Of a stretch of 64,000 bases of DNA, positions 1-64,000 are shown piece after piece. Position numbers and translations under genes: made by a program. The notes under the pieces are model-generated. The model was given only the letters and a program-made list of their open reading frames with translations, ran no database searches and was not told the origin of the DNA. The stretch is from an uncultured Acidimicrobiia bacterium (GTDB lineage: Bacteria; Actinomycetota; Acidimicrobiia; Acidimicrobiales; JACDCH01). Each line of letters starts with the position of its first letter. Within the stretch, counting starts at the first letter, position 1. Location of the stretch: assembly GCA_963840695.1 (NCBI GenBank), contig CAWIZW010000012.1, forward strand, positions 154,424 to 218,423, written 5' to 3'.

Positions 1-692
1 GTCGGCACGCTCGACTACGCGGCGGCGAGCTGGCGACAGGTGATGGCCGAGCTCGTCCGCATCCGGTCGATGTGGTTCGGGCTCATGTCGCTGACGATCT
101 CGTCGTTCCTCCTCGGCGCCCTGCGCGTCTGGGGCATCGAGTTCTTCAAGCGGGTGCACGGCCTGTCGGCCACCGAGGCGGGCGTCTCCGCGCCGGTCAT
201 CGGCGCCGGCGCGGCGATCGGGATCGTCGGCGGCGGCGATCGTGGCCGACCGCTCGCTCAAGGCGGGCAACCTCAACGCGCGCGTGCACGTCACCGCCGT
301 TGCGTCGGTCGCTCGCCACCGTCTTCCTGCGTCCCGGCCATCCTCACGACCAACCTCCTCCTGCTCCGCCGTGCTGTTCTTCTTCGGCTCGATGTGCCTG
401 ACCGCGCCGGTCGCGCCGAGCGAGGCGCTGGTGTCCGACGTCGTGCCCGGCGAGCTGCGCGGGCGGGCCGCGTCGGTGCGCTCGGTCGTCCGAGCGCTGT
501 CGCCGCGCTCGCGCCGCTGCTCGTCGGCGCCATCTCCGACGCCCTCGACGACGACCTCCGCATCGCCCTCGCCGTCGTCACGCCGCTCTACGCCGTCGGT
601 GGGCTCGTGATGCTCTTCGCCGCCCGCACCTACCCCGCCGACCTCGCCTTCGCCGCCGCCGAGGCCGAGCGCACCGCACCGGCCGAACCTGA
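1..692 (+). pseudogene. MFS-type transporter, C-terminal portion (5' end outside the window), frame broken several times
   Basis: Hydrophobic helix-rich translation runs in from the window edge and is spread over all three + frames (SMWFGLMSLTISSFLLGALRVWGIEFF; AVLFFFGSMCLTAPVAPSEALVSDVVPGELRGRA; LAPLLVGAISDALDDDLRIALAVVTPLYAVGGLVMLFAARTY). The stop is inferred as TGA 690-692 after one more shift. Confidence 0.55.
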
Positions 693-704
693 CGCGCGTG
701 TCAG
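689..704. promoter_or_regulatory. Palindromic operator-like site 1 (CTGACGcgcgTGTCAG)
   Basis: The left flank is gAAC. The site lies at the MFS gene end and overlaps GTG 698 of the dehydrogenase-aldolase operon. The geometry is GAACCT, 7 nt, GTG. Confidence 0.6.
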
Positions 705-1708
705 ACTCCGCTGCCGTGAAGATCCTCGCCACCGCCCCGCTGCGCGGGCCCGGCCTCGACACGCTGCGCGGCGCTCGGCGAGCTCGTCGAGGAGCCGTGG
801 ATCACCGGGCCGACCTCGCCGATGCGCCTGCTCGGCGAGGACGCACCTCGCCGCCCGGCTCGACCGAGCTCGGCGCCGACGTCGTCATCTGCGAGGCCGA
901 CTCGGTGAAGGGGCCGGTGCTCGACCTCGGCCTCGCCGGCCATCGGCTCGACCCGGGGCGACCCGACCAACGTCGACGTCGCCGGCGCCACCGCCAAGGG
1001 CATCCCCGTGCTGCGGGCGCCGGGCCGCAACGCCGACGGCGTCGCCGAGCTCGCCGTCGCCCTGCTGCTCGCCGTGCACCCGCGGCATCGTCGCCGCCGA
1101 TCGCGACGTGCGCGCCGGGCGAGGTGTTCCGCGACGGCACGATCCCCTACCAGCGCTTCCGGGCGTGGCAGGTCGCGGGCCGGACCGTCGGGCTCGTCGG
1201 GCTCGGCGCCGTCGGGCGCGCGGCCCGGTGGCGCTTCGAGGGCCTCGGCATGCGGGTCCGCGCGCTACGACCCCTTCGCCGCCGACGCCACCGACCCCGA
1301 CCTCGACGAGATGCTCGCGCGAGGTCGACGTCGTGTCGATGCACGCCGCCGTGACGCCCGAGACCCTCGGCCTCATCGGCGCCGGCCGGTTCGAGCGCAT
1401 GCGCGACGGCGCCGTCTTCGTCAACACCGCCCGGGCCGCGCTCCACGACCTCGACGCCCTCACCGCGGCCCTCGGCGTCCGGCCACCTCGCGGCCGCCGG
1501 CGCTCGACCACTTCGAGGGCGAGGCGCTCGCCGCCGACCACCCGCTGGCGGCGATGCCCAACGTCGTGCTGACCCCGCACATCGGCGGCGCCACCTACGA
1601 CACCGAGGCCAACCACACACGCTCGATCGCCGACGGGCTCGCCGCCCTGGTCGGCCGGCGAGCGCGCCGACGAACTGCGTCAACCCGGAGGTGCTCGAGC
1701 GTGGGTGA
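698..1708 (+). pseudogene. D-isomer-specific 2-hydroxyacid dehydrogenase (PGDH-like), multiply frameshifted
   Basis: Fragments lie in three frames: VKILATAPLRGPGLDTL, ELGADVVICEADSVKG, GIPVLRAPGRNADGVAELAVALLLAV, GRTVGLVGLGAVGRAA (GxGxxG), VVSMHAAVTPETLGLIG and VVLTPHIGGATYDTE. The tail is NPEVLERG followed by TGA 1706-1708. The start is GTG 698 or GTG 716. Confidence 0.7.
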
Positions 1709-2366
1709 CTCGAGCCCGACGACGACGAAGGAGGAGGTGCTCGCCACGGCCAAGCAGATGCTGGCCGACGGCCTCGTCGAAGGCACCGCCGGCAACATCT
1801 CCGGCCGCCTCGACGACGACCGGGTGTGCCTCACGCCGTCGTCGGTCGCCTACGAGACGATGACGCTCGACGACCTCGTCGTCGTCGACCTCGACGGCAA
1901 CGTCGTCGAGGGGCACCGCGTCCCCGACCACCGAGAAGGACCTCCACCTCTCGGTGCTGCGCGCCTATCCGGAGCTCGGCGCCGTCATCCACACCCACGC
2001 CGTCTACGCCACGATGTTCGCCCTCGCCCACGAGCCGATCCCCGCCGTGATCGAGGAGGTCGTCGTGTACCTCGGCGGCGACGTCCCGTGCTGCGACTAC
2101 AAGGGCACCGGGACGCGGGAGCTCGGCGACGAGGTCGCCGTCGAAGCTCGCCGACCGCGGCGCGGCGCTGCTCGCCAACCACGGCCTCGTCACGTGCGGC
2201 CCGAACCCGGCCAAGGCCCTGCACAACGCCGCCCTCGCCGAGCGCACGGCCAAGATCGTGTGGGGCGCCCGGGCGGCGGGGCTGGCGATCGTGCCCGCTG
2301 CCGGAGAAGGTCAACGCCGACATGGCCGGCGTGTACCGGTTCATGCGCGAGAACCCCGGGCGGTGA
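1701..2366 (+). pseudogene. Class II aldolase/adducin-family protein, frameshifted
   Basis: Fragments are EEVLATAKQMLADGLVEGTAGNISGRLDDDRVCLTPSSVAYETM, then (other frame) YPELGAVIHTHAVYATMFALAHEPIPAV, then the C-terminal LPEKVNADMAGVYRFMRENPGR. GTG 1701 overlaps the upstream stop. Confidence 0.7.
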
Positions 2367-2376
2367 CGCCGGAAAC

Positions 2377-2391
2377 CTGACACACCGTCAG
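2377..2391. promoter_or_regulatory. Palindromic operator-like site 2 (CTGACAcacCGTCAG, spacer 3 instead of 4)
   Basis: The left flank is AAAC. It is followed directly by TACGCT (2393-2398), then 8 nt, then ATG 2407. Confidence 0.55.
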
Positions 2392-2406
2392 ATACGCTCG
2401 CCGGCC

Positions 2407-3475
2407 ATGCCGTACCGCGTCGTGCAATGGTCGACCGGCCACGTCGGGATGCACGCCCTCCGGGCGATCCTCGACCACCCGGACCTCGAGCTCGTCGGCC
2501 TCTGGGTCCACTCGCCCGACAAGGTCGGGCGCGACGCCGGCGAGCTCGCCGGGCGGGCGCCGTCGGGGTCGCCGCCACCAACGACGTCGACGCCCTGCTC
2601 GACCTCGCCCCCGATGTCGTCTGCTACACGGCCACGGCCGACCTGCGCCCGCACGAGGCGGTCGCCGACATCGCCCGCATCCTCCAGGCCGGGGTCAACG
2701 TCGTGTCGAGCTCGCTCGTGCAGCTGCTGCACCCGCCGACCGCCGACCGATCGCTCGTCGAGCCCGCTCGAGGCCGCGTGCAAGGAGGGCGGCGCCTCCG
2801 TCTTCTTCAACGGCATCGATCCCGGGTTCTGCAACGACCTCCTCCCGCTCGTCCTGTCGGGCGTCAGCCAGCGCATCCGGTCGGTGCGGGTCATGGAGAT
2901 CCTCAACTACGCCACCTACGACCAGGCCGAGGTGCTGTTCGACACCATGGGCTTCGGCCAGGCCCTCGACGCGCAGCCGATGCTCCTGATCCCCGGCATC
3001 CTCGGCTACGCCTGGGGCGGCGCGGTGCAGTCCATCGCCGAGGGGCTCGGCGTCGAGCTGGACGAGATCCGTCGAGATCCACGAGCGGGTGCCGTTCGAC
3101 CGGCCGATCGAGGTCGCCGGGCGCACCGTCGAGCCGGGCACGACCGCCGGTCTCCGCTTCGAGGTCCAGGGCATGGTCCACGGCCGGCCGGTCGTGATCG
3201 TCGAGCACGTGACCCGGCTCCACGACGACGTCGCGCCCGAGTGGCCCGCGCAGGTGGGCCAGGGCCTCTACCGCGTCATCGTCGAGGGCGAGCCGACGAT
3301 CCAGTGCGAGATCTCCTTCTGCGGCGAGGACGGCGACCACAACACCGGCGGCCTGATCGTCACGGCCGCCAAGCTGCTCAACGCCGTCCCGGCCGTCGTG
3401 GCGGCCGCGCCCGGCATGCTGTCGGCGCTCGACCTCCCGCTCGTGTCCGGGAAGAACCTGGTCGAGGGCGACTAA
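2407..3475 (+). pseudogene. NAD(P)H-dependent amine dehydrogenase / DapB-like oxidoreductase family protein, frameshifted
   Basis: MPYRVVQWSTGHVGMHALRAILDHPDLELVGLWVHSPDKVGRDAGEL, VDALLDLAPDVVCYTATADLRP, and GASVFFNGIDPGFCNDLLPLVLSG through to LPLVSGKNLVEGD are distributed over three frames. The stop is TAA 3473-3475. Confidence 0.65.
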
Positions 3476-3476
3476 C

Positions 3477-3492
3477 CTGACGTGAGCGTCAG
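3477..3492. promoter_or_regulatory. Palindromic operator-like site 3 (CTGACGtgagCGTCAG)
   Basis: It forms a perfect 22-bp palindrome AACCTGACGtgagCGTCAGGTT (3474-3495). A TAACCT hexamer is fused to the left arm. Downstream are a GAGGGG Shine-Dalgarno-like run and ATG 3511. Confidence 0.65.
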
Positions 3493-3510
3493 GTTTCGAG
3501 GGGTCGAAGC

Positions 3511-4912
3511 ATGCCGCGTCGCACGACGCACAACCGATGGCGGATCGTCCTCGGGGTGCTCGCCGCCACGCTCCTGGCCGCCTGCGGCACGCGAGCATCC
3601 GACGACGAGTTCGCCGGCGACGACGCCGAGAGCGAGCTTGACGCGACAACGGCCACGGGCGGCGCCACCGGCGAGCCAGGCGCCGGTGTCGAGACCGGCG
3701 CCAACCAGGCCTCCGACGTCGGCATCACCGAGACGACGATCCGCCTCGGCACGATCGTCGCCGAGAACGGCGTGCTCGGCGACGCCTTCGCGCCTGCGGT
3801 GTGGGGCCTGCGGGCCTGGACGGAGTGGATCAACAGCCAGGGCGGGATCAGCGGCCGGCTGGTCGAGCTGTTCACGTGCGACGACCGCGAGGACCGGGCC
3901 CGGTCGCTCGAGTGCGCCCGGCGACTCGTCGAGGAGGACGAGGTCTTCGCCCTCGTCGCCACGAACAGCCGCGCCCTCGGCGGCGCCGCGCCCTACCTGA
4001 ACGAGCAGGACATCCCCGTGCTCGGCATCCCGATCACGAACAGCTTCTACCGCTACCCGCACTTCTACAGCGTGTACGGCGGCGGCTACCCGAACGACGG
4101 GACGACGGTCGGCAACGACGGACGAGCTGATGCAGTTCACGAGCAACTACCGGTGGTTCCGCGAGAACCTCGGAGCCACCAACGCCGCCGTCTTCTCCTA
4201 CGACATCGCCGAGTCGAGCCAGGCCGCCGACTTCATCGAGCAGGGCCTCCGGCTCGAGGGCTACACCGACATCGCCCGGTACACCGTCTCCTTCGCCGCG
4301 CCGAGCTTCGACCAGCCCGTCGCCGACATGCAGCGCCGCGGCACACAGATCATCTTCGACGCCATGGACGACGGCGCCAACCGCCGGCTGTGCGACGCCA
4401 TGGCCCGCCGTCAGTTCACCGTCGCGGCCAAGGTCACGACGATCGTCGGCTACGGCGACGAGGTCGGCACCGCCTTCAACGACGCCTGCCGGAACTCGAC
4501 CTACATCCCCGGCGACTCGATCCCGTACACCACGACGTCGGTCCCGATCATCGCCGCCTTCAACGAGGCCATGGCGCAGTACCAGCCGGACAAGGCGCTG
4601 CACCAGTGGGAGCTGGAGGCGTGGGCGCTGGCGACGATGGTCCGCGACGGCGTCGGGTCGATGGGGCCGGCGCCGACCCGGGCCGGGTTCGAGGCGTGGA
4701 TCCGGGCCCAGGACAACTTCACCGCCGACGGGATCATGAAGGGGATCAGCTACCTCCCCGAGGACTTCTCCCAGCCGCGCGCCCGGCACTGCTTCGCCAT
4801 CGCCCGGTGGCAGGACGCCACCGGCGGCTTCAGCCTCGTGAACCCGCCGTTCCCGCAGTGCTACGAGGACTCCCAGCGCTACGGCACCCCCGCCCGCGAG
4901 AACGGCGATTAG
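3511..4912 (+). pseudogene. ABC transporter substrate-binding lipoprotein (LivJ/branched-chain amino acid type), one frameshift near 4125
   Basis: It has a signal peptide plus lipobox (VLAATLLAACGT). The periplasmic-binding-protein-like body includes IRLGTIVAENGVLGDAF and WINSQGGISGRLVELFTCDD. The sequence continues in ORF 4130-4912. Confidence 0.7.
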
Positions 4913-6102: not shown

Positions 6103-6819
6103 TCAGCCTGCGAGGTAGTCGCCGGCGGCACTGCCGTGCAGCTCGCCGGGCTCGCCGCACCACGCCACGCGGCCCTTGGCGAGCACGTAGCAGAGGTCGG
6201 CCAGCCGGAGCGCATGGGTGAGGTACTGCTCGACGAGGACGATCGTGCGCCCGCCGTCGCGCAGCGCCTCGACCTGCTCGAAGATCTGGGCGACCACGAG
6301 CGGGGCGAGGCCCATCGAGAGCTCGTCGAACAGCACCACCTCCGGCGACCCGACGAGCGAGCGGCAAAGGGCGAGCATCTGCTGCTCGCCGCCGGACAAC
6401 GAGCCGGCCCGCTGTCCGAGCCGCTCCCCGCAGCCGAGGGAACGTCGCGGCGACGGTGTCGAGCCAGGCGTCCCACGGGCCGGCGCCGTCGGCCGATGCG
6501 GAGCGGTGGGCGATCTGGAGGTTCTCCTCGACCGAGAGCCCGGGGAACACGCCGCGGCCCTCGGGCACGAGCACGACGCCGCGCCGGGCGATCGTCGAGG
6601 GCCGGTGGCCGTCGATCCGCCGTCCGTCGAGGCGGATGGCGCCCGAGCGGATCGGCAGCAGGCCGGAGACGGCCCGCAGCGTCGTCGTCTTCCCGGCGCC
6701 GTTCGGCCCGAGCAGGGCGACCACGCTCCCCCGGGCACGGCGAGGGACAGGCCGTGCAGGATCTCGATGCGGCCGTACCCGGCGTGCACGCCTTCGACGG
6801 AGAGCGCGGCCGGCGTCAT
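6103..6819 (-). pseudogene. livF: Branched-chain amino acid ABC transporter ATP-binding protein (LivF type), frameshifted
   Basis: N-terminal [26 protein letters not shown], the Walker A segment [18 protein letters not shown] (other frame), and the signature/Walker B segment SGGEQQMLALCRSLVGSPEVVLFDELSMGL are all present. The ATGA overlap joins it to the livG stop. Confidence 0.75.
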
Positions 6820-7634
6820 CGCGATGCAGGGTCCTCGACGCCGAGGTAGGCGACGCGCACCTTCTCGTCCGACGCGATCTCGGCCGGCGTCCCGGCCGCG
6901 ATGAGACGGCCGAAGTCGAGCACGTAGATCCACGACGACAGCGCCATCACCAGCTCGACGTCGTGCTCGACGAGCAGGATGCCGACGCCCGTCGCGGCCA
7001 CCTCGCGCAGCACCGCCTGGAACGCGGCGGTCTCGCCGCGGTCGAGGCCGCTGCCGGGCTCGTCGAGCAGCAGCACGGTCGGCCTGGTGCACAGCGCCCG
7101 ACCGAGCTCGACCAGTCGGAGGAGGGCGGTGGAGAGCGATCCGGCGACGCGGTCGGCGACCGGTCCGAGGCCGACGAGGTCGATGACCGCCTCGACCTCG
7201 GCCACGACGGTCGGGTCGTCGCGGTGGCGGAGCGCGAAGACCTCGGTGAAGGTGCGTCCGGGGCGAGCGGCCTCGGCGGCGACCTGGAGGTTCTCGAACA
7301 CCGTCATGCCGGTGAAGACCTCGAGCCGCTGGAACGTCCGGGCCATCCCGAGCCGGGCCCGCTGGTGCGTGCCGAGGGTGGTGACGTCGCGGCCGCCGAG
7401 GCGGACCGAACCCGCGTCGGGCGGGCGCAGCCCGGTCAGGGCGTTGAACATCGTCGTCTTGCCGGCGCCGTTCGGGCCGATGAGCGAGGTGACGGCGCCG
7501 GGCGCCACCGCGAGCGACACGTCGTCGACCGCGGTCAGCCCGCCGAAGCGCACGGTGATCGACGTCGCCTCGAGCACCGGGTCGTCACCGGGGGCGGTCC
7601 CGTCAGGACCGGCGGGGAAAGTCGACGTGATCAC
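6816..7634 (-). CDS. livG: Branched-chain amino acid ABC transporter ATP-binding protein (LivG type)
   Basis: The gene is intact. Walker A is [18 protein letters not shown], the signature region is [16 protein letters not shown] and Walker B is LLLDEP. GTG 7634 overlaps the livM stop as GTGA. Confidence 0.8.
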
Positions 7635-8729
7635 GTCGGTTTCCCCCGCACATTCGCGGTTTCGGCGAGGAGGCGTTGGGCGAACTCGCTCGGGACCAGG
7701 CCGGCGCCGACCGGCGCCGGCGCCGCGGCCGGTGCTGCCGCGGCGCGCCACGCTCGCGTCAGGTGGCGCTCGATCCCGGCGGGAGCCGCTCGGCCAGCCC
7801 GACGAGGCCGCCCGGCATCCGCCCGAGGAGACAGCGCGGCCAGCAGGCCGAACACGCCGATGGCGCGAGGACGTCGAGGTCGGTGACCCGCGGGATGACG
7901 ACGTACAGGACCGCCGCCAGGATGGCCCCGCGGATCGATGCCACCCCCGCCACGACGACGGCCACGAACCAGAACAGGCCGAAGACGGGGTTGAACGTCG
8001 TGACGTCCCAGTTCTGGTCGGCCTGGGTGAGCATGGCGCCGCCGATGCCGGCCATCGCCGAGGAGACGCCGAACACGAACAGCTTCGCCCGGCGCAGGCC
8101 GATGCCGATCGAGCGGGCCGCCGTCTCCGAGTCGCGCATGGCGGCGAGCACGCGGCCGAGGCGTCCCGTGCGCAGGTTGCGGGCCAGCAGCAAGCATGGC
8201 GCCGAGCACGACGAGCTCGTAGAACCAGAACGCCGTGTCGCCGGAGAGGTCGATCCCGAAGAGCTGGGGCCGCTCGATCACGAGCCCGCCCGGGCCGCCC
8301 GCGAACAGCTCGGCGTGTTGAACACGAACCGGTCGATGATCAGCGCCAGCGCCAGCGTCGTCAGCCCGAGGAACAGGCCCTTGCCGTTTCAGCGCCGGCT
8401 AGCCGGCGGCCAGGCCGGCGACGAGCGCGACGCCGGCGCCCGGGACCATGGCGAGGAGGACCGGCAGGTCGAAGGCGTTGGCGAACCGTGCGGTCGCGAA
8501 CGCGCCGAGCCCGGCGATCGAGGCCTGCCCGAGGGTGATGTGACCGGAGAAGCCGGTGATGCACGTGATCGACACGAAGATCACGGCGAGCGCGAGGAGG
8601 TGCTGGCCGAGCCGGAGGTCGGCGCCGTCGAGGTAGGCCGGCGCGAGGACGGCGGCGAGGACCATGGCGATGGTGACGAACGACGCCGACGCGGCCCGAC
8701 CGGCGGGCTCGCCCGAAGGCTCCGGTCAC
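7631..8729 (-). pseudogene. livM: Branched-chain amino acid ABC transporter permease (LivM type), frameshifted
   Basis: TM-rich fragments are [50 protein letters not shown] and [42 protein letters not shown]. The putative GTG 8729 overlaps the livH stop as GTGA. Confidence 0.6.
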
Positions 8730-9667
8730 GAAGCCGGGGCCGCGTGGACGTGTCGCCCACCTCGTCGAGGCGGCGGAACAGGAGCAGCACCGCCAGCAGG
8801 AGGATGCTCGAGAGGTTGAGGACCGCCGCGTCGTACAGGCGGGCGGGGTCGGTGCCGGAGCCGAAGGGCTCGAAGCCGTCGAGCACGGCGCGGCGTCAGT
8901 CCCATCACGAGGAAGCCGAAGAGCGACGGCGACGGGCAGGCTCGTGAGCCGGGCGACGACGGCGACCGAGAACGTCTCGATGCCGAGGAAGATGATCTTC
9001 TGCGGCTCGAGCACCGGCGCCGCGATGAGCAGCCCCGTGAGGGCGGCGAGCGAGCAGCCGAGCGTCCACGCCACCTGCGACACGCGGTTGGCGTCGATGG
9101 CGGCCAGCTCGGCCAGCTCGCGCCGGTCGACCACGGCGCGGATGCTCGTGCCGAGGAACGTGCGGCGCAGCAGGAAGCAGAGACCGGCCGACAGGGCGAG
9201 GATGGCGAGCACGACGCCGACCTGCTCGGTGTCGAGGACGAAGCGAGCCGACCTCGAAGGTCTTGTCGGGGAAGAGGCGCGGCACCGGGTCCTCGACGCC
9301 GCCCTGCACGCCCGGACCCCAGATCCAGTTGATGAGCCCGAGGATCACCACCGTCACGCCGAGGGCGGCGACGAGCTTCTCCGAGCTGCCAGCCCGCCGC
9401 ACCTGGAGCGGCCGGAACACGACCCGCTCGAGCACGAGCCCGAGCACGGGCCCGCACACGACCAGGACCACGATCACCGATGGCCACGAGCGGGACCCCG
9501 ACGACGCCGTTCAGCTGCCACCCGAGGTACCCGGCGAGGAGGGCGATGGCGAAGTGGGCGATGTTGAAGACGCCTGTCGCCGTGTACGTGAGGACGATCC
9601 CCGAGGCCGACAGCGCGTAGACGCCGCCGACGATGATGCCGAGCAGCGCGTTCTCGAGGAACACCAT
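8726..9667 (-). pseudogene. livH: Branched-chain amino acid ABC transporter permease (LivH type), frameshifted
   Basis: Fragments MVFLENALLGIIVGGVYALSASGIVLTYTATGVFNIAHFAI, LERVVFRPLQ, AVVDRRELAELAAIDANRVSQVAWTLG and ILLLAVLLLFRR lie in different frames. Confidence 0.6.
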
Positions 9668-9672
9668 CGGCG

Positions 9673-10206: not shown

Positions 10207-10286
10207 GTCGCCTCCTCGGTTCATCGGCGCGACCCCGTCATCCCCTCGTTCGCCCCCCCGGGCCACCCAATCCTGCCGCGCCGGGC

Positions 10287-11075: not shown

Positions 11076-11086
11076 GTTAGTCGGAC

Positions 11087-12149: not shown

Positions 12150-12164
12150 GTAGGGGGTGAGGCC

Positions 12165-53898: not shown

Positions 53899-53999
53899 CG
53901 GCAGGGACGGCCAGGCTCGTCCACCGGCGACGATCATCGACCTCGCAGGGCGGCGGCTACGGCTCCTGGGCTGATCGCCGGTCGCGGTGGCGCGCGACC

Positions 54000-55369: not shown

Positions 55370-55377
55370 CCCCGAAC

Positions 55378-55393
55378 CTGACACGAGCGTCAG
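55378..55393. promoter_or_regulatory. Palindromic operator-like site 12 (CTGACAcgagCGTCAG)
   Basis: It lies in a divergent gap. On the plus strand, TACTGT (55396-55401) is followed by 7 nt and ATG 55409. On the minus strand, the TACCCT hexamer (55398-55393) overlaps it, and GTG 55369 lies 8 nt beyond the site. Confidence 0.65.
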
Positions 55394-55408
55394 GGTACTG
55401 TCGCCGCC

Positions 55409-56721
55409 ATGCCGCCGACCTACGACCCGCACTTCCTCGGACCCGAGCCGCGCGACCCGGCGCAGCCCTACTGGGACCCCGAGATGCAGACGATGCCGCG
55501 GGAGGAGCTCGAGGCGCTGCAGCTCGACCGGCTGCGCACCCTCGTCGCCCGGCTCGTCGACCGGGCGAGGCGCCGCTGTTCGGGCGCAAGCTCGCCGACG
55601 CGGGCATCGACGCACCGGAGGCGATCGGGTCGCTCGACGACATCGCCGCCATCCCGCTCACGCGCAAGCAGGAGCTGCGCGACAGCGAGGCCGAGCACGC
55701 CGCCGTTCGGCGACTACCGGTTCACCGACTGGCGAGCGTGCGTTCGCCTCGGCACGTCGACGGGCACGACGGGCACGCCGACGGTCGCCCTCTGGACCCG
55801 CAACGACATCTGGCTCGAGTACGAGTCGGCGGCCCGCAACTGGTGGCGCACGGGTTGGCGCCCGGGCCAGATCGTCACCCACGCCCACCCCGCCTACCTC
55901 TACGGCGGCGGCGCCATGCTGTCGGGCTCGCTCGAGTACTTCGGCATGCTCAACATCTGGGTGGCGCCGCCCGACACCGACGAGATCGCCGAGCAGGGCA
56001 TCCGCATGTGGCAGCGCGTCCGGCCCGACGTCTCCTTCGTCGCCTTCAACCTCAACCGCTTCGTCGAGGTGGCCGCCAAGCTCGGCCTCGACGACATCGG
56101 CCTGCCCGCCTTCCAGTTCCACGGCGTCGGCAAGAAGGGCTTCCCGTTCATGACCTGTGGCGCCGAGGCCTACGCCTACGCCGGCGGGCCCGGGACCGCA
56201 GTGCACCGGCGGCCACATCCACGAGGACTGGGCCATCGTCCAGGCCGTCGACCCCGACACCGGGCTCGAGGTTCCCGAGGGCCAGTGGGGCAACCTCGTC
56301 GTCACCACGCTCGACCGCGACAACGGCCTGCTGCGCTACGACCTGGAGGAGGCGGTGTGCGAGTTCCGCGAGCCGTGCCCGTGCGGCGAGACGACGAAGC
56401 GCATGTTCTGGGGCGGCCGCTTCAAGGACTTCCTCACCGTCCAGGGCCGCTGGTTCAACGTCAACGAGGTCGAGCAGGCGCTCCGGTCGGTCGCGGCCGT
56501 CGCCGCAGCCGACGCTCGAGTACGTCGTCGTGAAGCCGACCGACGCCGACGCGCCGCTGCGCGTCCGCGTCGAGCTCGCCGACGGCGACCCGGCCGTCGT
56601 CGGCGACGAGTGCGCCGCCGTCGTCGAGAACGAGGTCGGCGTCAAGGCCGACGTCGAGGTGCTCGAGCGCGACACGCTCGCCCGCAGCGGCTACAAGGCC
56701 ACCCGCCTCGTCGAGGCCTAG
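55409..56721 (+). pseudogene. Phenylacetate-CoA ligase (PaaK) / coenzyme F390 synthetase-like family protein, frameshifted
   Basis: Fragments are YWDPEMQTMPREELEALQLDRLRTLV, LDDIAAIPLTRKQELR, GTSTGTTGTPT, GGHIHEDWAIVQAVDP and CPCGETTKRM. Confidence 0.7.
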
Positions 56722-56730
56722 ACGGCCGCC

Positions 56731-57615
56731 ATGGGAGCGCTGGACGGCAAGGTGGCCGTCGTCACCGGGGCCGGCCGCGGCATCGGTCGCGGCGAGGCGC
56801 TGGCGCTGGCGGCCGAGGGCGCGGCGGTCGTCGTGAACGACGTCGACCACGACCTCGCCACCGCGGTCGTCGCCGAGATCACCGGGCCGGGCGGCGCGGC
56901 CGTCGCCGACGCGCGCGACGTGGCCGACTGGAGCGGCGCCGCCGCGCTGGTCGACGCCGCCCTGGCGTCGTTCGGACGCCTCGACGTGCTCGTCAACAAC
57001 GCCGGCTTCCTGCGCGACCGGATGAGCTTCTCGATGGACGAGGCCGAGTGGGACGACGTCGTGCGTGTCCACCTCAAGGGCCACTTCGCACCGAGCCGCG
57101 CCGCCGCCGCGCACTGGCGCGAGCGAGCCAAGGCCGGCGACGCGGCCGGCCGGGCCATCGTCAACACGGTGTCGGAGGCCGGCCTCTACGGCGGCACGGG
57201 CCAGGCCAACTACGTGGCCGCCAAGGCCGGGCATCGCCGGCATGACGATCGGCCTGGCGCGGGAGCTCTCGCGCTACGACATCCGGGTCAACGCCATCGC
57301 CCCGCGGGCCCGCACGCGCATGACCGAGGACGTCCTCGGCGACTTCGCCGCGCCACCGCCCGACGGCGGCTTCGACGAGTGGGACCCCGACAACATCGGT
57401 CCGGTCGTGGCCTGGCTCGCGAGCGACGCCGCCGCCGGCGTCACCGGGCAGGTGTTCGTCGTCTTCGGCGGGCGCATCCACCTGTTCGAGGGCTGGACGA
57501 TGGTGTCGGAGATCGAGCAGGGCGAGCGCTGGACGGTCGACGCCGTCGCCGCCCGGGCCGACGAGCTGTTCGGCGAGCGCCGCCGCGGCACCCCCCGATG
57601 GGCTTCGGCCGCTGA
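56731..57615 (+). pseudogene. SDR family oxidoreductase (long, about 290 aa type), two frameshifts
   Basis: Fragments are VAVVTGAGRGIGRGEALALA, LVNNAGF, YVAAKAG then IAGMTIGLARELSRYDIRVNAIAP, and the tail GTPPMGFGR. Confidence 0.8.
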
Positions 57616-57623
57616 CCAACCCC

Positions 57624-57672
57624 GAATTGGCGGTGGCTACCGGCGTATGGAGCGGACAACCACCGCCAATTC
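57624..57672. repeat. REP-like hairpin element, copy B
   Basis: The arms are GAATTGGCGGTGG and CCACCGCCAATTC (13-bp perfect stem), and the right arm ACAACCACCGCCAATTC is shared with copy A. It lies between convergent gene ends (57615 + and 57685 -). Confidence 0.6.
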
Positions 57673-57684
57673 GATTCTCCCGGG

Positions 57685-58593
57685 TCACCAGTCGATGGCG
57701 CTGAGGAAGGTCGAGATGAGGTTGACCGTCGAGCGGGGGTTGTCGCCGGCGGCGAGGTGGCCGGCCTTCTCGACGGTGGCGAGCCGGGCGTCGGTCATCA
57801 GGTCGACGAGCTCGGTGGCGGTGTCGCCCGAGAGCACGTCGGAGGCGCCGCCGCGCAACACGAGGGTCGGGCACCGGATGGCCCGGGCGTCGTCCTCGAC
57901 CCCGGCCATCACGCCGGCGACCTCGGGCACCTCCCCCCCGGCCTCCCCGACGCGACGGTTCCAGCTCCGGCCCATCCCGTGCTTCCAGATCCACCGGCCG
58001 TCGGCCCGCTGGCGGAGGTTGCGCGTCAGCGACTCGGGCCGGAACGACTTGCGGTAGGGCAGGTACTCGCCGATGAAGGCGGCGGCGTCGTCGAGGCTGG
58101 CGAAGCTCTCGTGGGCGCGCATGAACTCGATGATCTTCATGACGCCTTCGGGCTCGACCTTGTGGCCGATGTCGATCAGCACGAGCCCGGCCATGCGATC
58201 GGGATGGGCGGCCCCGAGGGCGAGCGACACCAGCCCGCCCAGCGACGCCCCCACGAAGACGGCCCGGTCGACGCCGAACTCGTCGAGGAACGGGACGGTC
58301 GCGGCGGCCAGCACCGTCCGGTCCCACATCCCCGGCGGCAGCGGATCCGAGTCGCCGTGGTTGGGCAGGTCCGGCGCCAGCAGGTGGTAGCGCCCGCGCA
58401 GGGAGGCGCCCAGCTCCTCGAACATGTAGGCCGTCTGGCCGCCGCCGTGGAGGCACAGGACGGCGGGCGCCGTCGAGCGACCCCACTCGAGGTAGTGCAC
58501 CTGCCGGTCGCCCTCGACGACGACGAAGCCGCTGCGCCCGTCGATCGGGCAGTCGTGGCGGGGAACGACGTCGTCGGGATCGATAGCTGACAC
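57685..58593 (-). CDS. Alpha/beta hydrolase fold protein
   Basis: The ORF is an intact 302 aa. Segments are LCLHGGGQTAYMF, the nucleophile elbow VGASLGG, and AGHLAAGDNP. The only start candidate, GTG 58593, lies inside operator site 13. Confidence 0.8.
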   Translation of the reverse strand: MSAIDPDDVVPRHDCPIDGRSGFVVVEGDRQVHYLEWGRSTAPAVLCLHGGGQTAYMFEELGASLRGRYHLLAPDLPNHGDSDPLPPGMWDRTVLAAATVPFLDEFGVDRAVFVGASLGGLVSLALGAAHPDRMAGLVLIDIGHKVEPEGVMKIIEFMRAHESFASLDDAAAFIGEYLPYRKSFRPESLTRNLRQRADGRWIWKHGMGRSWNRRVGEAGGEVPEVAGVMAGVEDDARAIRCPTLVLRGGASDVLSGDTATELVDLMTDARLATVEKAGHLAAGDNPRSTVNLISTFLSAIDW

Positions 58594-58602
58594 GCGTGTC
58601 AG
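58587..58602. promoter_or_regulatory. Palindromic operator-like site 13 (CTGACAcgcgTGTCAG)
   Basis: It lies in the divergent gap between the alpha/beta hydrolase (-) and the acyl-CoA synthetase (+, ATG 58614). The left flank is TAG, as at site 4a. Confidence 0.65.
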
Positions 58603-58613
58603 TATCCCTCCGC

Positions 58614-60179
58614 ATGGACCTGTTGCACGCCCTGACCCTCGGCGACGTGCTCCGCGAGCACCGCCGCAGCTACCCGCTCCGGACGGCGACGGTCGACGGC
58701 GACGTCCGGCTCACGTGGCCCGCGCTCGATGACCGCGTCAACCGCCTCGCCCAGGCCCTGCTCACCGCCGGCGTCGGCGAGGGCGACCGCCTCCTGTGGC
58801 TCGGCCAGAACAGCTGGCGCCTCCTCGAGGTCCTCCTCGCCGCGGCCAAGACCGGCGCCGTCTGCTGCCCGGCCAACTGGCGCAGCGCGGCCGACGAGCT
58901 GGCCTTCGTGCTCGAGGACGCCACGCCCGCGGTCGTCGTCTGGCAGGACGCCGAGATCGGCGACAACGTGCGCGCCGCGCGCGAGGCGACCGGCGGCGCC
59001 GGCCTGTGGCTCCAGCACGACGGCCCCGCCGGCGCTCCCGGAGGTGCGAGCGAGTACGAGGCCTTCCTCGCCGGGGGCGAGCCGGCCGACCCCGACCTCG
59101 TGATCGACCCGGCGTCGCCGGTCCTCATGCTCTACACGGCGGCCTTCACCGGACGGCCGAACGGGGCGCTGCTCTCGCACTGGGCCGTGCTCGTGCAGAA
59201 CCTCGTGATGGGCAACCTGCAACGGGTCGACAGCTCGTACGTGTACCTGAACAGCGGACCGCTGTTCCACGTGGCCACGTTCATGACGACCCTCGCCACC
59301 CTGCACTTCGCCGGCACGAACGTCTTCACGCCGCGCTCCGACGCCGAGGAGATCTGCCGGCTGATCCAGGACGAGCGCTGCACCGGCGCGTTCGTCGTGC
59401 CGCCCACGACCGACCAGATCATCGAGTTGAACGCCGGCGGCAAGTACGACCTGTCGTCGCTGCGGACGTTCCCCGGCAAGCCCGAGTGGAACGCGATGGT
59501 GACCGTCGACGACAGCCCGTGGACGCGACGACCGGCCGGCTTCGGGCAGACCGAGTGCATGGGCATGCTGACGCTCAACGCCTGGGGCGGCGACGCCACC
59601 GGCACGAGCGGACGGCCCTCGCCGATGGTGCAGCTGCGCATCGTCGACCCCGACGGCAACGAGGTGCCGCCGGGTGAGGTCGGCGAGATCGTCGGGCGGG
59701 GCCCGACGGTCATGAACGGGTTCCTCAACCGTGCCGGTCTGAGCGAGGAGCGGCTCGCCGGGGACTGGCACCACACCAACGACCTCGGCCGGCGCGAGGA
59801 GGACGGGTCGCTCACCTGGGTCGGTCCGAAGACCCGCTTCATCAAGTCGGCCGCCGAGAACATCTACCCCGCCGAGGTCGAGGCCGCGCTCGAGAAGCAC
59901 CCGGCCGTGCGCGAGGCGGCCGTGATCGGCGTGCCCGACCCGACCTGGGGCCAATCGGTGCGGGCCGTCGTCGCCCTCAAGGACGGCGAGTCGGCGACGG
60001 CCGAAGAGCTCATCGAGCACTGCCGCACGCTCATCGCGTCGTACAAGAAGCCGCGGTCCGTCGAGTTCGTGGATGCCCTGCCCCGGCTCGGCTGGCCGAT
60101 CGACTACGACGCGCTCGACGAGCGGTTCGGCGGGGGCGGCTACCCCACTGGGGTCAGAGGAAGCGGATCTCGCGGCTGA
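58614..60179 (+). CDS. Acyl-CoA synthetase (AMP-binding family)
   Basis: The gene is intact. Segments are MLYTAAFTGRPNGALLSH, WHHTNDLGRREEDGSL and YKKPRSVEFVDALPR. The ORF-track start at GTG 58596 lies inside the operator, so ATG 58614 is preferred. Confidence 0.85.
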   Translation: MDLLHALTLGDVLREHRRSYPLRTATVDGDVRLTWPALDDRVNRLAQALLTAGVGEGDRLLWLGQNSWRLLEVLLAAAKTGAVCCPANWRSAADELAFVLEDATPAVVVWQDAEIGDNVRAAREATGGAGLWLQHDGPAGAPGGASEYEAFLAGGEPADPDLVIDPASPVLMLYTAAFTGRPNGALLSHWAVLVQNLVMGNLQRVDSSYVYLNSGPLFHVATFMTTLATLHFAGTNVFTPRSDAEEICRLIQDERCTGAFVVPPTTDQIIELNAGGKYDLSSLRTFPGKPEWNAMVTVDDSPWTRRPAGFGQTECMGMLTLNAWGGDATGTSGRPSPMVQLRIVDPDGNEVPPGEVGEIVGRGPTVMNGFLNRAGLSEERLAGDWHHTNDLGRREEDGSLTWVGPKTRFIKSAAENIYPAEVEAALEKHPAVREAAVIGVPDPTWGQSVRAVVALKDGESATAEELIEHCRTLIASYKKPRSVEFVDALPRLGWPIDYDALDERFGGGGYPTGVRGSGSRG

Positions 60180-60534
60180 CGAAGCGCCACTCGCCGTCGC
60201 CGTCACGCCGGAGGCGGTCGTGGTAGCGGCCCGCCGAGGTGATCTCCCTGGCCTTGGACAGGAACAGGTAGTCGGTGACGGCGGCGGCCTCGTCGCCGTC
60301 CACGTCGACCTCCGATTGGGCGATGACGTGCTTCCCACGGGCGTCGGGGCCCTGGGACTTCTCGATGAACGCCCGGATGGCGTCCCGACCCTCGTAGGTG
60401 CGGCCCAGAACGGAGAAGGTGGCGCCGGGCTCGAACAGCTCGGACCAGGTCGCGAAGTCGCCGTCGTCGCATCGCTGGCAGTAGCGGGTCAGCGTGCGCC
60501 GGATGGCGCTCTCCGCCGCTGGATCGGTGGTCAT
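60154..60534 (-). CDS. SnoaL-like / NTF2-fold protein
   Basis: The ORF is an intact 126 aa: MTTDPAAESAIRRTLTRYCQRCDDGDFATWSELFEPGATF...RYHDRLRRDGDGEWRFVSREIRF. ATG 60534 lies 7 nt after a TACTTT hexamer. Confidence 0.7.
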   Translation of the reverse strand: MTTDPAAESAIRRTLTRYCQRCDDGDFATWSELFEPGATFSVLGRTYEGRDAIRAFIEKSQGPDARGKHVIAQSEVDVDGDEAAAVTDYLFLSKAREITSAGRYHDRLRRDGDGEWRFVSREIRFL

Positions 60535-60559
60535 GGATCGGAAAGTACTGTTCGACGCC

Positions 60560-61435
60560 ATGGCGAACATCCTCGAGTTCCTCCGCGGCGTGATCACCGA
60601 GCCCGAGGCGCGGGGGGCCTTCCAAGCCGACCCCGACGGGTACATCGAGAGGGCGGGTTTCGTCGACCTGACCGGCGAGGACGTGGTCGAGGCGGTGCTC
60701 GTCCTGCGGCGCTCGCTGCCCGAGGACGTCGCCGCCCGCCTGTCGGCCTTCGAGGACGACGACGAGCTGCCGGCGGTGCGGCCGGGGCCCGAGGAGACCG
60801 AGCTCGACGCCGCGGTGCGGATGCTCCACTTCGCCATCCAGGCCGGCGGGATGGCGACCACGGCCGGGCCGTCGGGCGACCAACCGATCGACGTGGAGAA
60901 CGAGCTCGACACCGACCTGGCCCCCGCGGCGCCGGCCGCCTCGACGGCCGGCGGGGTGGCGGCAAGTCCGGCGCAGACGCTCCAACGGTTCTCCGACGAC
61001 GTCGACACGATCGTGGGCGACGCCGCCGAGGCGCTGGAGAAGGCCGCCGCGGCGATGCGCGACGCGGTGGCGGCGGCCGTCGGCGAGGCCGACGCCCATG
61101 CCCGGCAGATGCGAGCCGAGGCCGACGTCGAGCGGGAGAGCGCCCGCGTCGAGGCCGACGTCGAGCGGGAGAGCGCCCGCGTCGAGGCCGAGCGGATGCG
61201 CACCGAGGCCGACAACGAGCTCCAGCGCGCACGCGAACAGGCCGAGGAGTCACGGCGACGCGCCGAGGAGCTCGTCGCCTCCGCGCAGGCCGAGAGCGAA
61301 GCGACCCACGCCGAGCTGGCGGCCCGCCGCGCCGAGTTGCGCGAGGTCGAGCGCCAGCTCAAGCAGCGCCTGCACGACATCGACTCGCTGTTCCGCACCG
61401 CCCTGGGCGACGAGGGCGACGCCCCGCCGGCCTGA
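60560..61435 (+). CDS. IniB-N-terminal-like domain protein with a long charged coiled-coil C-terminus
   Basis: The gene is intact. The N-terminus MANILEFLRGVITEPEARGAFQADPDGYIERAGFVDLTGEDVVEAV resembles the IniB N-terminal domain. The C-terminal part is an E/R/A-rich heptad-like sequence. ATG 60560 lies 8 nt after TACTGT. Confidence 0.55.
   Translation: MANILEFLRGVITEPEARGAFQADPDGYIERAGFVDLTGEDVVEAVLVLRRSLPEDVAARLSAFEDDDELPAVRPGPEETELDAAVRMLHFAIQAGGMATTAGPSGDQPIDVENELDTDLAPAAPAASTAGGVAASPAQTLQRFSDDVDTIVGDAAEALEKAAAAMRDAVAAAVGEADAHARQMRAEADVERESARVEADVERESARVEAERMRTEADNELQRAREQAEESRRRAEELVASAQAESEATHAELAARRAELREVERQLKQRLHDIDSLFRTALGDEGDAPPA
61118..61183 (+). repeat. Perfect 33-bp tandem repeat (x2, plus 9 bp of a third copy) inside the coiled-coil gene
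   Basis: GAGGCCGACGTCGAGCGGGAGAGCGCCCGCGTC occurs at 61118-61150 and 61151-61183. It encodes EADVERESARV twice, in frame. Confidence 0.85.
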
Positions 61436-61453
61436 GGACCTCGCCGGCTCGGC

Positions 61454-62182
61454 TCAGGCGACCGTCCAGCCTCCGTCGGCGGCGCGCCGCCAACCGCCGG
61501 CGGCGTGGTTGCCGCCGTCGACGTGGATCGTCGAGCCGGTGACGAAGCGAGCGAGGTCCGAGGCCAGGAAGACCACGGCGCCGGCGACGTCGTCGGCCCG
61601 CCCTGCTCCGCCGAGCGGCGTCCGGACCCCCTCGAGGGCGCCGACGCCGGGGGTCACGATCACGTCGGGGGCGACGCAGTTCACCCTGATCCCGCGGTCG
61701 CCGAGCTCGAGGGCGAGGGAAGCGGTCAGGTTGACCACCGCCGCCTTCATGGCTGCGTAGAGAGCGAAGCCGGGCGCGGCCCGGTGCGCTTCGATCGAGG
61801 TGATGTTCACGACGGCGGCGCCGTCGGCGAGCAGCGGCTCGAACGCCCGGGTGACATCGGCGAGCTGGGTGAAGTTCTCCCGGATCAGGGCGTCCTGGGC
61901 CCGTAGCGAGAGGTCGGCGAAGGCGGCAGGGAACCCACCGCCGGCGTTGTTCACGAGGACGTGCACCGGCGCCCCGATGGCGGCCGCCCAGCACGACACC
62001 GCGTCGGGGTCGCGCACGTCGACCCGCTCCGTCGCACCGTCGATCGGGTCCTTGTCGCAGCCGTGCACGTCGGCGCCGAACGCCGCCAGCGCGTCGTGGA
62101 CGGCGGCGCCGATGCCGCGGGCCGACCCGGTGACCACCGCCCGCCGCCCGTCCAACCGCACGTCGTCCGGCCCCACGCCCAC
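61454..62182 (-). CDS. SDR family oxidoreductase
   Basis: The ORF is an intact 242 aa. Motifs are AVVTGSARGIGAA, NNAGG and YAAMKAA. Confidence 0.85.
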   Translation of the reverse strand: MGVGPDDVRLDGRRAVVTGSARGIGAAVHDALAAFGADVHGCDKDPIDGATERVDVRDPDAVSCWAAAIGAPVHVLVNNAGGGFPAAFADLSLRAQDALIRENFTQLADVTRAFEPLLADGAAVVNITSIEAHRAAPGFALYAAMKAAVVNLTASLALELGDRGIRVNCVAPDVIVTPGVGALEGVRTPLGGAGRADDVAGAVVFLASDLARFVTGSTIHVDGGNHAAGGWRRAADGGWTVA

Positions 62183-62194
62183 GCCCCGGAGACG

Positions 62195-64000
62195 CTAGCC
62201 ATCGAGTGACTCCGGCAACGGGTCGTGGTGGACGACCGTCAGGGACTGGACGGCGCGGGTGAGGGCGACGTACAGGAGCCGGAGGCCGGCGGCGACGTCG
62301 GCACCGGTCGTGGCGACGATCGCCGCCGGTTCGACGACGACGACGCCGTCGAACTCGAGGCCCTTCGCCTCGGCCGGCGCGACGAGCTGCGCCGCTCCGC
62401 CCAGCCCGGCGTCGCGAAGCGCCGCGTGGGACGCGGCGACGGCGACGACCCCGACGCTCGTGTGGCCGGCGGCGTCGAACGCCGCCACCGCCTCCACGGC
62501 CGTCGCCGATGACCGCGTCGACCTCGACGGCGACGCGACGTCGGGCTGCTGGCCGGTCGTCGCGCACCGACCGGGCCGGCACGACGCCGGGCGCCGCCTC
62601 GGCCAGGAGCCCGTTGGCCCAGTCGAGGATCGGCGGCCGGCACGCGGTAGCCGAGGGTCAGCTCGGCCAGCCGACGCCAGCGGCGGGACGCCGAGGTGCC
62701 CGATGGCCTCGTCCCACGAGCCGCTGTGCGCCCGGCGCGGTCGCCTGGGCGAGGTCGCCGAGGATCGTGAGCGAGCCCGACGGGCAGCGCCGGGCCGACG
62801 GCGCGGAACGCCATCGCCGTGAGGTCCTGGGCCTCGTCGACCACGACGTGGCCGTAGGACTGCGGCGCCCCCTCCGTCGGCCGCCCGGCCTCGTCGACCA
62901 CGACCAGCTTCGGCCGCCGACCACGGCTCGTCGTCCGAGCCGCCGGGCGCCGCGCCGCAGGAGCAGGCGCTGCTCGCAGTCGATCGAGCAGCCCGTCGGC
63001 GGCGGCGGCGAGCGCCGTCCGGTTCGTGAGCAGCCGCTTCGGCCAGCGCCGCGCCCGACAGCGGCGGCCAGAGCCGGTCGAGGGCGCGGGCGAGGTCGCG
63101 CCGGCGGCCGGAGGTCGTCCTCGAGCGCCTCGGAGGTGACGATGCCGCCGCCCGGCTTCTCGGCGACCTCGAGGCGGGCCAGGCGCAGCAGGATCGTGCG
63201 CAGCGCGGTCCGCGCCACGCCGTGGGGCGACGTCGCGGCCGGCGACCTCGGCGACGGCAGCGGCGACGGCCGCCTCCGGGATCCGGAGCAGGCCCCAGGC
63301 CGAGGGGAGGTCGAGGTCGCCCTCGGGCGCCTTGATGGCGCCGCGCGATCGCCGCCTGCACGACCGCCGCCATCCGGGCGTCGCCGAGCAGCGCCGCCCG
63401 CGCGCGGCGGGTCGACGGCGGCGTCGGCCGTCGACGCCCACCAGCCCGGCCACCGTGGCCTGGCGGACGCTCGTCTCGCCGAGCGACGGCAGGACCTGGC
63501 TGATGTAGCGCAGGAACGTCGGGTTGGGGCCGACGACGAGCACGCCGACCTCGTCGAGCAGACGCCGGTGCTCGTACAGCAGGTAGGCGGCGCGGTGCAG
63601 CCCGACCGCCGTCTTGCCGGTGCCCGGTCCGCCCTGCACCACCAGGCAGCGGTCGAGCGGCGCCCGGATGACGACGTCCTGCTCGCCCTGGATGGTGGCG
63701 ACGATGTCGCGCATCGTCCCGGTGCGGGCCCGTTCGAGCTCGGCCAGCAGCGGGTCGGGCACGCCGCCGTGCCCATGGGCGGCGTGGACGCAGTCGGGGT
63801 CGGCGAAGTCCTCGTCGAACAGCGCCTCGATCGCGGCTCCCTGCGGTGGCGAAGCGCCGCCGGCGGGCGAGGCCGAGCGGGTCGGCCGGCGTGGCCCGGT
63901 AGAAGGGGACGGCCGCCGGCGCCCGCCAGTCCATGACGAGGGTGCCGCCGTCGGGGTCCTCGACGTGGCGGCGCCCGATCCGGTAGTCGCCGTCGCCCTC
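62195..64000 (-). pseudogene. HelD / helicase IV-like UvrD-family ATPase (5' end outside the window), frameshifted
   Basis: Fragments are DYRIGRRHVEDPDGGTLVMDWRAPAAVPFYRATPADPLG, the Walker A segment VVQGGPGTGKTAVGLHRAAYLL, YGHVVVDEAQDL, ILGDLAQ and the C-terminal KGLEFDGVVVVEP...LYVALTRAVQSLTVVH. Confidence 0.7.

Follow-up and report, generated by a model that had tools for sequence, protein, structure and literature searches.

Blockwise reading-frame changes in a 64-kb Acidimicrobiia contig very probably reflect regional consensus error rather than gene decay

Assemblies and metagenome-assembled genomes (MAGs) made from low-depth or under-polished long reads (nanopore, or PacBio continuous long reads, CLR) carry single-base indels that fragment conserved genes, the frame-corrected translations of which are full-length. 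In such low-depth assemblies the error density follows local support, whereas the same population assembled from short reads has its genes unbroken, and this indel problem is the target of the IDEEL test, proovframe and Homopolish. A long-read consensus retains frameshifting indels unless depth is high, approximately 40x for R10.4 (PMC9262707), and polishing requires a uniformly high depth that is seldom attained in complex communities and fails for low-abundance members; raw PacBio CLR errors amount to about 8% insertions versus 3% deletions (10.1101/2021.08.23.457338). Real bacterial pseudogenes, on the other hand, have insertion:deletion ratios of 0.76-0.94 and power-law sizes, and about half of their insertions are direct repeats (PMC6054270). 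The 64,000-nt stretch analysed here (hereafter the window; forward-strand positions 154,424 to 218,423 of contig CAWIZW010000012.1, assembly GCA_963840695.1, from an uncultured Acidimicrobiia bacterium) resembles the long-read cases, with conserved genes fragmented by single-base indels. A first-pass annotation made from its letters alone had described about 100 reading-frame changes arranged in blocks, and had preferred regional indel-type consensus error as the explanation. This preference is supported by intact relatives, the indel spectrum, selection and the indifference of the damage to gene function. With a probability of roughly 0.95, the broken frames are regional indel-type consensus errors of the deposited assembly, not gene decay.

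The window has a GC content of 73.5% and a third-codon-position GC (GC3) of about 0.96, so that the coding frame can be read directly from composition and is tracked well by a GC3 model. A 7-state GC3 frame hidden Markov model (HMM) run over the whole window gave 170 segments and 118 frame changes within the same strand. True gene ends, recognised by an old-frame stop no more than 25 nt from the frame change, accounted for 22 of these, and the other 96 are frameshift candidates. Their density was 1.39 per kb in the window, compared to 0-0.1 per kb in short-read contigs analysed with the same HMM, the control set comprising 44 other high-GC loci. A lower-penalty codon-usage HMM yielded 231 segments, including noisy short ones, and was used solely to cross-check junction positions. 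When the proteins were stitched across the junctions, single full-length Pfam matches bridging them were obtained, such as GGDEF (1-160/161) together with EAL (12-236/236) in one signalling protein, PhoD (1-342/343), Hydantoinase_A (1-288/291), Aldolase_II (1-182/183) and Peripla_BP_6 (1-340/343). Junctions were likewise bridged by matches to FGGY, ABC ATPases, a permease, an amidohydrolase and a short-chain dehydrogenase (SDR), and all three domains of acyl-CoA dehydrogenase (ACAD) were matched across them. In-frame stops in the window were confined to gene ends. Scans of the window for tRNAs and Rfam families found none.

The frame changes are attributed to assembly or consensus error because near-identical DNA from independent metagenome assemblies has the genes intact. 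Three independent JGI metagenome contigs, collinear with the window at 93-97% DNA identity, served as DNA references. The first (L060, JGI 3300060897) is about 97% identical at the nucleotide level and carries an intact ACAD gene corresponding to window 39923-41126. Compared with it, the window has exactly four extra bases in this gene (41024, 40839, 40686 and 40500), which coincide one by one with the predicted junctions. An intact protein from a JGI metagenome (P0048) matches the stitched ACAD at 96% identity over 100% of the length of the latter. The second (L072, JGI 3300038383) spans window 17350-25344 at 96.1% identity with all genes intact there, and revealed about 7 extra coding bases in 8 kb of mostly clean sequence (five single bases and a pair in a TetR gene). 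Within 17.35-25.3 kb it also served to validate the HMM, all 4 of whose 4 candidates were confirmed with an offset of 0-15 nt and without false positives. The third (L070, JGI 3300038383; 8,988 bp; about 93% nucleotide identity over 8.9 kb) was reached via the contig of a 73%-identical GGDEF-EAL match, the best search-table matches having been 73% identical for GGDEF-EAL and 67% for FGGY. It aligns with window 50093-59029 in a single collinear blastn high-scoring segment pair (HSP), and none of its 8 genes is broken. The window differs from L070 by 91 indels, of which 87 fall inside 50232-57232, where the HMM saw about 45; the total comprises insertions of one base (63) or two bases (4) and deletions of one base (23) or 3 nt (one).

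Between 34 and 49 kb, the comparison relied on two contigs (L068, of 24 kb, and L069) that are syntenic with the window at 62-91% protein identity; the k141_ record name of L068 suggests a short-read (MEGAHIT) assembly. A custom-written frameshift-aware protein-DNA alignment, validated on the ACAD gene, located there 36 events of insertion type and 3 of deletion type. For another three near-identical JGI contigs (samples 3300041967 and 3300067032), the comparison used gene tables only, and these list intact genes where those of the window are broken. The indels are thus absent from independent assemblies of near-identical populations, in the DNA of L060, L070 and L072 as well as in the three gene tables, and frame-corrected translation restores full-length conserved proteins, as judged by Pfam and by the ACAD comparison with P0048. 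The nearest species-representative genomes, Acidimicrobiales MAGs with 57-59% protein identity for an RPE65-type oxygenase and without synteny, were used as controls only. Intact proteins of the window, among them hydantoinase B, a 143-aa MaoC dehydratase and proteins of the clean blocks at 42007-45817 and 57685-62555, are recorded in identical form under NCBI and ENA, all on one contig of 328,293 bp. Alignment to orthologs, a check that the first-pass annotation had called for, placed indels against L060, L070, L072 and L068/L069. Merging the HMM results with the exact comparisons to relatives gave a census of at least 186 events, 144 of them reference-checked. The existence of the frame changes was hence upheld, while their number had been undercounted roughly two-fold.

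The frame changes are strongly clustered. The variance/mean ratio of the event counts was 2.1, 3.4 and 6.0 at bins of 1, 2 and 4 kb, respectively (p = 8e-7 to 1e-12), and 9 gaps of more than 2 kb were observed compared to 4.6 expected (P = 0.006). Densities range from 0 per kb in several blocks of 2-7 kb to a maximum of 20 per kb between 51 and 54 kb, and the blockwise arrangement of real frame changes claimed at the outset is therewith confirmed. Clean and dirty blocks and the genes in them are as follows.

1-4119, plus strand: dirty block, about 18 frame changes (HMM and junction-bridging Pfam matches, without a close DNA reference); MFS transporter, D-2-hydroxyacid dehydrogenase, class II aldolase, DAP-DH-like gene, liv-type binding protein
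6439-11899: moderately dirty block, about 11 frame changes (HMM; two Pfam ABC_tran matches and BPD_transp_2 across junctions); livG/livF-type ABC ATPases, BPD_transp_2 permease and neighbours
11900-14907, plus strand: clean block, a single HMM segment
12165-13982, plus strand: hydantoinase B, intact, 605 aa (Pfam Hydantoinase_B 1-519/519)
14066-16095, plus strand: hydantoinase A, broken; two +1 frame changes, near 14908 and near 15368 (HMM; the stitched Hydantoinase_A match spans both)
18089-21327: five single extra bases by comparison with L072 DNA (18089 G, 18578 T, 19649 C, 19883 C, 21327 C), affecting luciferase-like, metallo-beta-lactamase-fold and ACAD genes
21328-28366: longest clean block, compared with L072 DNA to 25344 and covered by HMM and Pfam only at 25345-28366
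21777-23480 and 25924-27429, minus strand: two intact AMP-ligases in the longest clean block, which also holds an acetyltransferase and other genes
28367-31576: dirty block, at least 9 frame changes (frameshift-aware alignment to L062, L063 and L069 proteins; HMM; Pfam)
About 28367: extra base in a zinc alcohol dehydrogenase
28980-30575, minus strand: PhoD phosphatase, Pfam PhoD match across junctions
30579-31750, minus strand: ACAD, Pfam ACAD domains matched across junctions
34334-36611, minus strand: dirty block, 12 single extra bases, 8 in a TLP1-type thiolase-like gene and 4 in an enoyl-CoA hydratase (ECH) gene (frameshift-aware alignment to L068/L069 orthologues, 75-84% amino-acid identity)
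36612-39129: clean block by HMM, with the reference check confined to 36703-37131
36703-37131: MaoC dehydratase, intact, 143 aa, 0 events in the L068/L069 protein alignment
39130-42006: dirty block (L060 DNA; L068/L069 protein alignments)
38932-39916: ACAD, 1 extra base at 39130
39923-41126: ACAD, extra bases 41024 C, 40839 G, 40686 C and 40500 G
41469-42276: ECH, events at 41671, 41768 and 42006
42007-45817: clean block with full-length Pfam matches, the reference check being confined to gluQ 42314-43192 (0 events versus L068)
42305-43201: gluQ, followed by an RPE65-type oxygenase at 43275-44648; the block also holds a 189-aa gene
45818-48636, minus strand: dirty block, 19 events (L068 orthologues at 74-85% identity, split tblastn HSPs, Pfam on stitched proteins); 2 in a thiolase-like gene, 4 insertions and 2 deletions in two DUF35/ChsH2-type genes, 11 in the C-terminal part of an ACAD (47820-48636)
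50232-57232: worst block, 87 indels versus L070 (62 single insertions, 3 two-base insertions, 21 single deletions, one 3-nt deletion); GGDEF-EAL 50 (20.4 per kb), amidohydrolase 16 (14.9 per kb), FGGY kinase 10, PaaK-like gene 5, SDR 2
57685-62555: clean block; abhydrolase 57685-58593, AMP-ligase 58614-60179 and downstream genes
62556-64000, minus strand: dirty block, helicase-like gene with at least 2 frame changes (HMM)

Several of these assignments differ from the earlier description. The stretch from 1 to 4.1 kb, missing from its list of dirty stretches, is likewise dirty; the break at 4119 falls within the liv-type binding protein, and the protein of a relative aligns in frame 1 and then in frame 2 at 3069/3074. 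Dirty blocks had been credited with 3-6 frame changes per kb, but the worst reaches 15-20 per kb. The clean blocks stood wherever a reference was available (21328-23520, 23684-25344, 36703-37131, 42314-43192 and 57685-59027), the rest of them being clean by HMM only. The frame changes at about 14908 and 15368 break hydantoinase A. Three TetRs had been counted as intact, but a 210-aa TetR gene at about 23550-24177 contains two extra bases at 23681-23683, the sole coding defect of the longest clean block. An extra GC unit had been proposed at 23682-23690; the extra bases are there, though against L072 they are a G and an A (23681/23683) within GCGCGC, around codon 45, leaving the helix-turn-helix region frameshifted. 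The other L072 differences in this block (23522/23541 and 24722-24723) fall between genes or at their ends. Upstream, the HMM junctions at 18089, 18581, 19656 and 21312 agree with the extra bases located through L072.

In the near-identical contig of JGI 3300067032, the alcohol dehydrogenase (339 aa), PhoD (530 aa) and ACAD (388 aa) of the 28367-31576 block are all intact. The gene table of JGI 3300041967 likewise lists an intact ECH of 241 aa and intact ACADs of 390 and 334 aa, as well as an intact counterpart of the SDR in the worst block and an intact 684-aa gene at the position of the helicase-like gene, the last correspondence being deduced from gene order. The frame signal is unreadable at 62556-63097. 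In the worst block, the GGDEF-EAL signalling protein (2.45 kb) is the most damaged gene with its 50 indels, and the two genes beyond the SDR show 0 indels versus L070. Similarly, 57685-59027 has 0 coding indels versus L070, which reaches to 59029, and 59030-62555 is covered by the HMM only. Across 50-59 kb the density drops in steps, from about 20 per kb at 51-53.5 kb to about 6, about 2 and finally 0, which fits a stepwise change in read support.

Such a map would result if the consensus carried residual single-base indel errors while the genes were unbroken in the organism. The errors, mainly spurious extra bases, would be left where the consensus is weakly supported, owing to few reads, incomplete polishing or several collapsed strains, and would be absent where support is good. 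As a result of these differences in support, clean blocks (2-7 kb) would alternate with dirty ones in which the density reaches 20 errors per kb. The source is presumably a long-read assembly, and we infer that the block borders track read depth, polishing or strain mixture.

Damage is also blind to gene function. No functional targeting is apparent, because genes for GGDEF-EAL, the FGGY kinase, PhoD, the MFS transporter, the aldolase and the helicase-like protein are damaged as severely as the catabolic ones, and the blocks run across gene and strand boundaries. The specific decay of a catabolic island, entertained previously, does not agree with a signalling protein being hit worst, and the seeming sparing of ligases and TetRs reflects the chance placement of clean blocks.

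The spectrum of the indels is equally telling. Among the reference-checked events, 112 are insertion-type and 32 deletion-type (3.5:1), and 133 of the 144 (92%) are exactly 1 nt. A sign test on the HMM candidates gave 73:23 (p = 3e-7), with the bias present on both strands. In the L070 alignment, the inserted base equals a neighbour in 9 of 62 cases, compared to a chance expectation of 35.7 +/- 3.7, and 85% of the inserted bases are non-duplicative. A GG or CC is split by the insertion in 27 of the 62, the commonest change being GG->GCG / CC->CGC. No extended motif of the kind expected from methylation-type systematic error was found at the insertion sites, only the GG/CC preference and an avoidance of CG. 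This spectrum is the opposite of replication slippage and non-biological; it fits a sequencing or consensus process and does not resemble spontaneous mutation. By comparison with described pseudogenes, the indels are neither deletion-biased nor varied in size, and insertions are rarely duplicative (PMC6054270).

The same alignments bear on the possibility that a flow-based or early nanopore platform (454, Ion Torrent, R9.4) misread homopolymer lengths. The window holds 461 G/C runs of 4 or more in which such errors could occur, and the difference between C4 and C5 at 41420/41452, in two copies of a 33-bp repeat, is of this very type. That difference, pointed out in the first-pass annotation, is real: copy 1 of the window has C4, and both copies in the 97%-identical L060 have C5. 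The exact alignments nevertheless contradict homopolymer errors as the general source, which we consider very unlikely. No homopolymer enrichment was detected at junction windows for runs of >=4 or >=5, 53 of 62 inserted bases are in runs of length 1, deleted bases are in runs of >=2 at chance level (10 of 21), and the direction is chiefly insertion, not deletion. The association with homopolymers or short repeats, which had been proposed as a check, is therefore absent, and homopolymer context is unusable as an error criterion. Programmed ribosomal frameshifting or phase-variable contingency loci would likewise place frame changes in functional genes, but have next to no likelihood in view of up to 50 changes per gene, the lack of any simple-sequence repeat or shared slippery motif at the sites, and the absence of the changes in relatives of 93-97% identity.

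Selection on the broken genes was assessed after removal of the indels, another check that had been suggested earlier. The ratio of nonsynonymous to synonymous substitution rates (dN/dS) was 0.15-0.44 in broken genes compared to 0.08-0.29 in intact neighbours, and the ACAD gene differs from that of L060 by 20 synonymous and 5 nonsynonymous changes. No new in-frame stop appeared in 2,836 codons aligned with L070, in agreement with the initial claim that nonsense codons are lacking. Since 2.3% of random substitutions in these genes would create a stop, 5-11 stops would be expected if some 235-469 substitutions had been unconstrained (P = 0.005 to 2e-5), and some 20 if substitutions outnumbered indels by a typical factor of about 10:1, a value that is assumed and not measured. 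Neither of the marks of decay, a dN/dS moving towards 1 or nonsense codons, was thus seen, and the frame-corrected genes give no sign of relaxed selection.

These data leave little room for a real and very recent indel-only inactivation in one strain, through pseudogenisation or localised hypermutation, with substitutions yet to accumulate. Indels specific to the window do not alone separate mutation from error when the relatives are 3-7% diverged, clustering might in principle represent patches of error-prone repair, and the substitution density is raised in the densest block. Recent decay would, however, have to accommodate 50 indels in one 2.45-kb gene without a single stop in the corrected frame, and 0 new stops where 5-20 were expected overall. 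It would also require a 3.5:1 excess of insertions contrary to the deletion bias of bacteria, and events that are 92% single-nucleotide with 85% of inserted bases non-duplicative, contrary to slippage. Functionally unrelated genes are affected, and a like signature is found in other long-read MAG contigs and absent from short-read contigs. We accordingly consider recent decay highly improbable. If the extra bases were real after all, for which we see only a very slight chance, they would represent patchy non-templated single-base insertions over kb-scale tracts of a wild Acidimicrobiales strain, quickly inactivating dozens of genes; a possible cause would be, for example, localised error-prone repair or a gap-filling polymerase with a GG->GCG preference.

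A different question is whether the artefact, though real, owes its blocks to collapsed strain heterogeneity rather than to low depth, with the consensus writing, for example, both G/C alleles in tandem. The inserted bases are unlike their neighbours and often the complementary base within GG or CC, the densest block shows about twofold divergence to L070 that is rich in G<->C changes, and close strains do differ structurally, as an SDR remnant in the window illustrates. Alleles written in tandem would be expected beside third codon positions and near substitutions, but insertion sites are distributed over the codon phases as 15, 18 and 26 (p = 0.19), with no significant concentration beside third positions, and substitutions within 3 nt of indels numbered 34 versus 38.5 expected, which is no enrichment. 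Collapsed strains, rather than low depth, as the origin of the blocks are conceivable, but on balance we hold this version to be the less likely one.

Several observations weigh against consensus error as the explanation. The references are 3-7% diverged and belong to other strains, so that the indels are, strictly, specific to the window's lineage or assembly. The classic long-read signature of homopolymer indels is absent, and the GG->GCG preference is odd; it might come from a homopolymer-compressed consensus, from an insertion-biased low-depth graph consensus, or from both alleles of a polymorphism being written in collapsed strains. Local GC content correlates weakly and non-significantly with indel density (rho 0.18-0.24), which leaves the simple story of GC bias blocking short-read polishing unsupported, and local GC was rejected as a driver of the blocks. 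Substitutions versus L070 are about twice as dense at 50232-54000 as in the adjacent 54-59 kb (85 versus 41-46 per kb), half of the changes in the former being G<->C transversions, and synonymous divergence per gene is 0.15-0.23 versus 0.08-0.12. This suggests a strain mosaic or mixture, or added substitution errors, and could also be real extra divergence. Finally, both the sequencing platform and the origin of the blocks are deduced from assembled sequence.

Insertion-biased frameshifts of this kind are met in other contigs as well. Contigs named as Microflora Danica (MFD) MAGs showed 0.3-0.9 HMM candidates per kb with an insertion bias of 55:22. We take the Microflora Danica bins to be nanopore long-read assemblies. 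Frameshifted genes were observed in five of these MFD-named soil MAG contigs (L048, L050, L052, L055 and L056), with RPE65 split in L048, L050 and L056, and the frameshift problem seems to be a general one for low-support bins. Among the RPE65 relatives, two MAG records titled 'Bordetella parapertussis' (L017) and 'Bifidobacterium breve' (L022) contain Acidimicrobiia-like RPE65 genes of 50-51% identity to the window protein, similar to the Acidimicrobiia MAGs listed with them; both are probably mislabelled bins.

The region has further features of its own. Judged by its genes, the stretch at 34300-49000 resembles a cluster for beta-oxidation of steroids or branched side chains in a genome of Acidimicrobiales type: it encodes enoyl-CoA hydratases and a MaoC hydratase, paired ACADs, thiolase-like proteins (Ltp2/TLP1) and DUF35/OB proteins of the ChsH2 type. 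ACAD homologues are labelled 3-oxochol-4-en-24-oyl-CoA dehydrogenase by JGI, and the cluster is syntenic in L068. Within it, an SDR gene varies among close strains: it is intact at 329 aa in a near-identical JGI contig and 305 aa long in L068 (9084-10001), is represented in the window (41130-41399, minus strand) by a 90-aa remnant in which its two termini are fused, and is missing altogether in the 97%-identical L060. This difference looks like real structural variation, not indel error. Small tandem repeats at 41090-41142 and 41400-41470 flank the divergent region between ACAD and ECH, and both are shared with L060 (1-190). One consists of a 17-nt unit present three times, with 'CCTCATGAAGC' and the ACAD start codon in each copy, and the other is the 33-bp unit present twice. 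Elsewhere, a perfect 33-nt tandem repeat (2.3 copies) lies at 61117-61191 inside a clean-block coding frame, and a 61-nt repeat (2.1 copies, 92% matches) at 49960-50085 just upstream of a ferredoxin gene.

The biological import of the broken frames is nil, as the genes of the organism are almost certainly intact. Taken at face value, the contig would give about 40 false pseudogenes, many truncated proteins and an underestimated completeness, and a beta-oxidation cluster of steroid or branched-chain type might be mistaken for a decaying one. The window also illustrates that consensus errors need not occupy homopolymers and may be strongly regional, so that homopolymer-aware methods or spot checks of a few genes would miss them. 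Regions of this sort can be flagged and repaired cheaply if a GC3 frame model is paired with short-read metagenome contigs as references.

Comparison with known systems places the window apart from each of its nearest parallels in one respect or another. Nanopore errors in the literature are mainly homopolymer indels, whereas those of the window avoid homopolymer extension and favour GG->GCG. Frameshift errors have a longer history in DNA of this composition: they arose through GC compressions when high-GC actinomycetes were sequenced by the older Sanger method, and were the historical reason for FramePlot-type GC3 analysis. High GC, single-base errors in G/C context and detection by the third-position GC frame signal are shared with those cases, but a Sanger origin is improbable for a window that lies on a 328-kb contig of an uncultured organism and whose relatives are recent metagenome assemblies. 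Genuine pseudogene decay is known from Mycobacterium leprae. The pseudogenes of Candidatus Burkholderia leaf-nodule symbionts include many multi-frameshift genes beside intact neighbours (PMC6054270). They display a deletion excess, broad indel sizes, duplicative insertions, nonsense codons and relaxed dN/dS, none of which the window shows.

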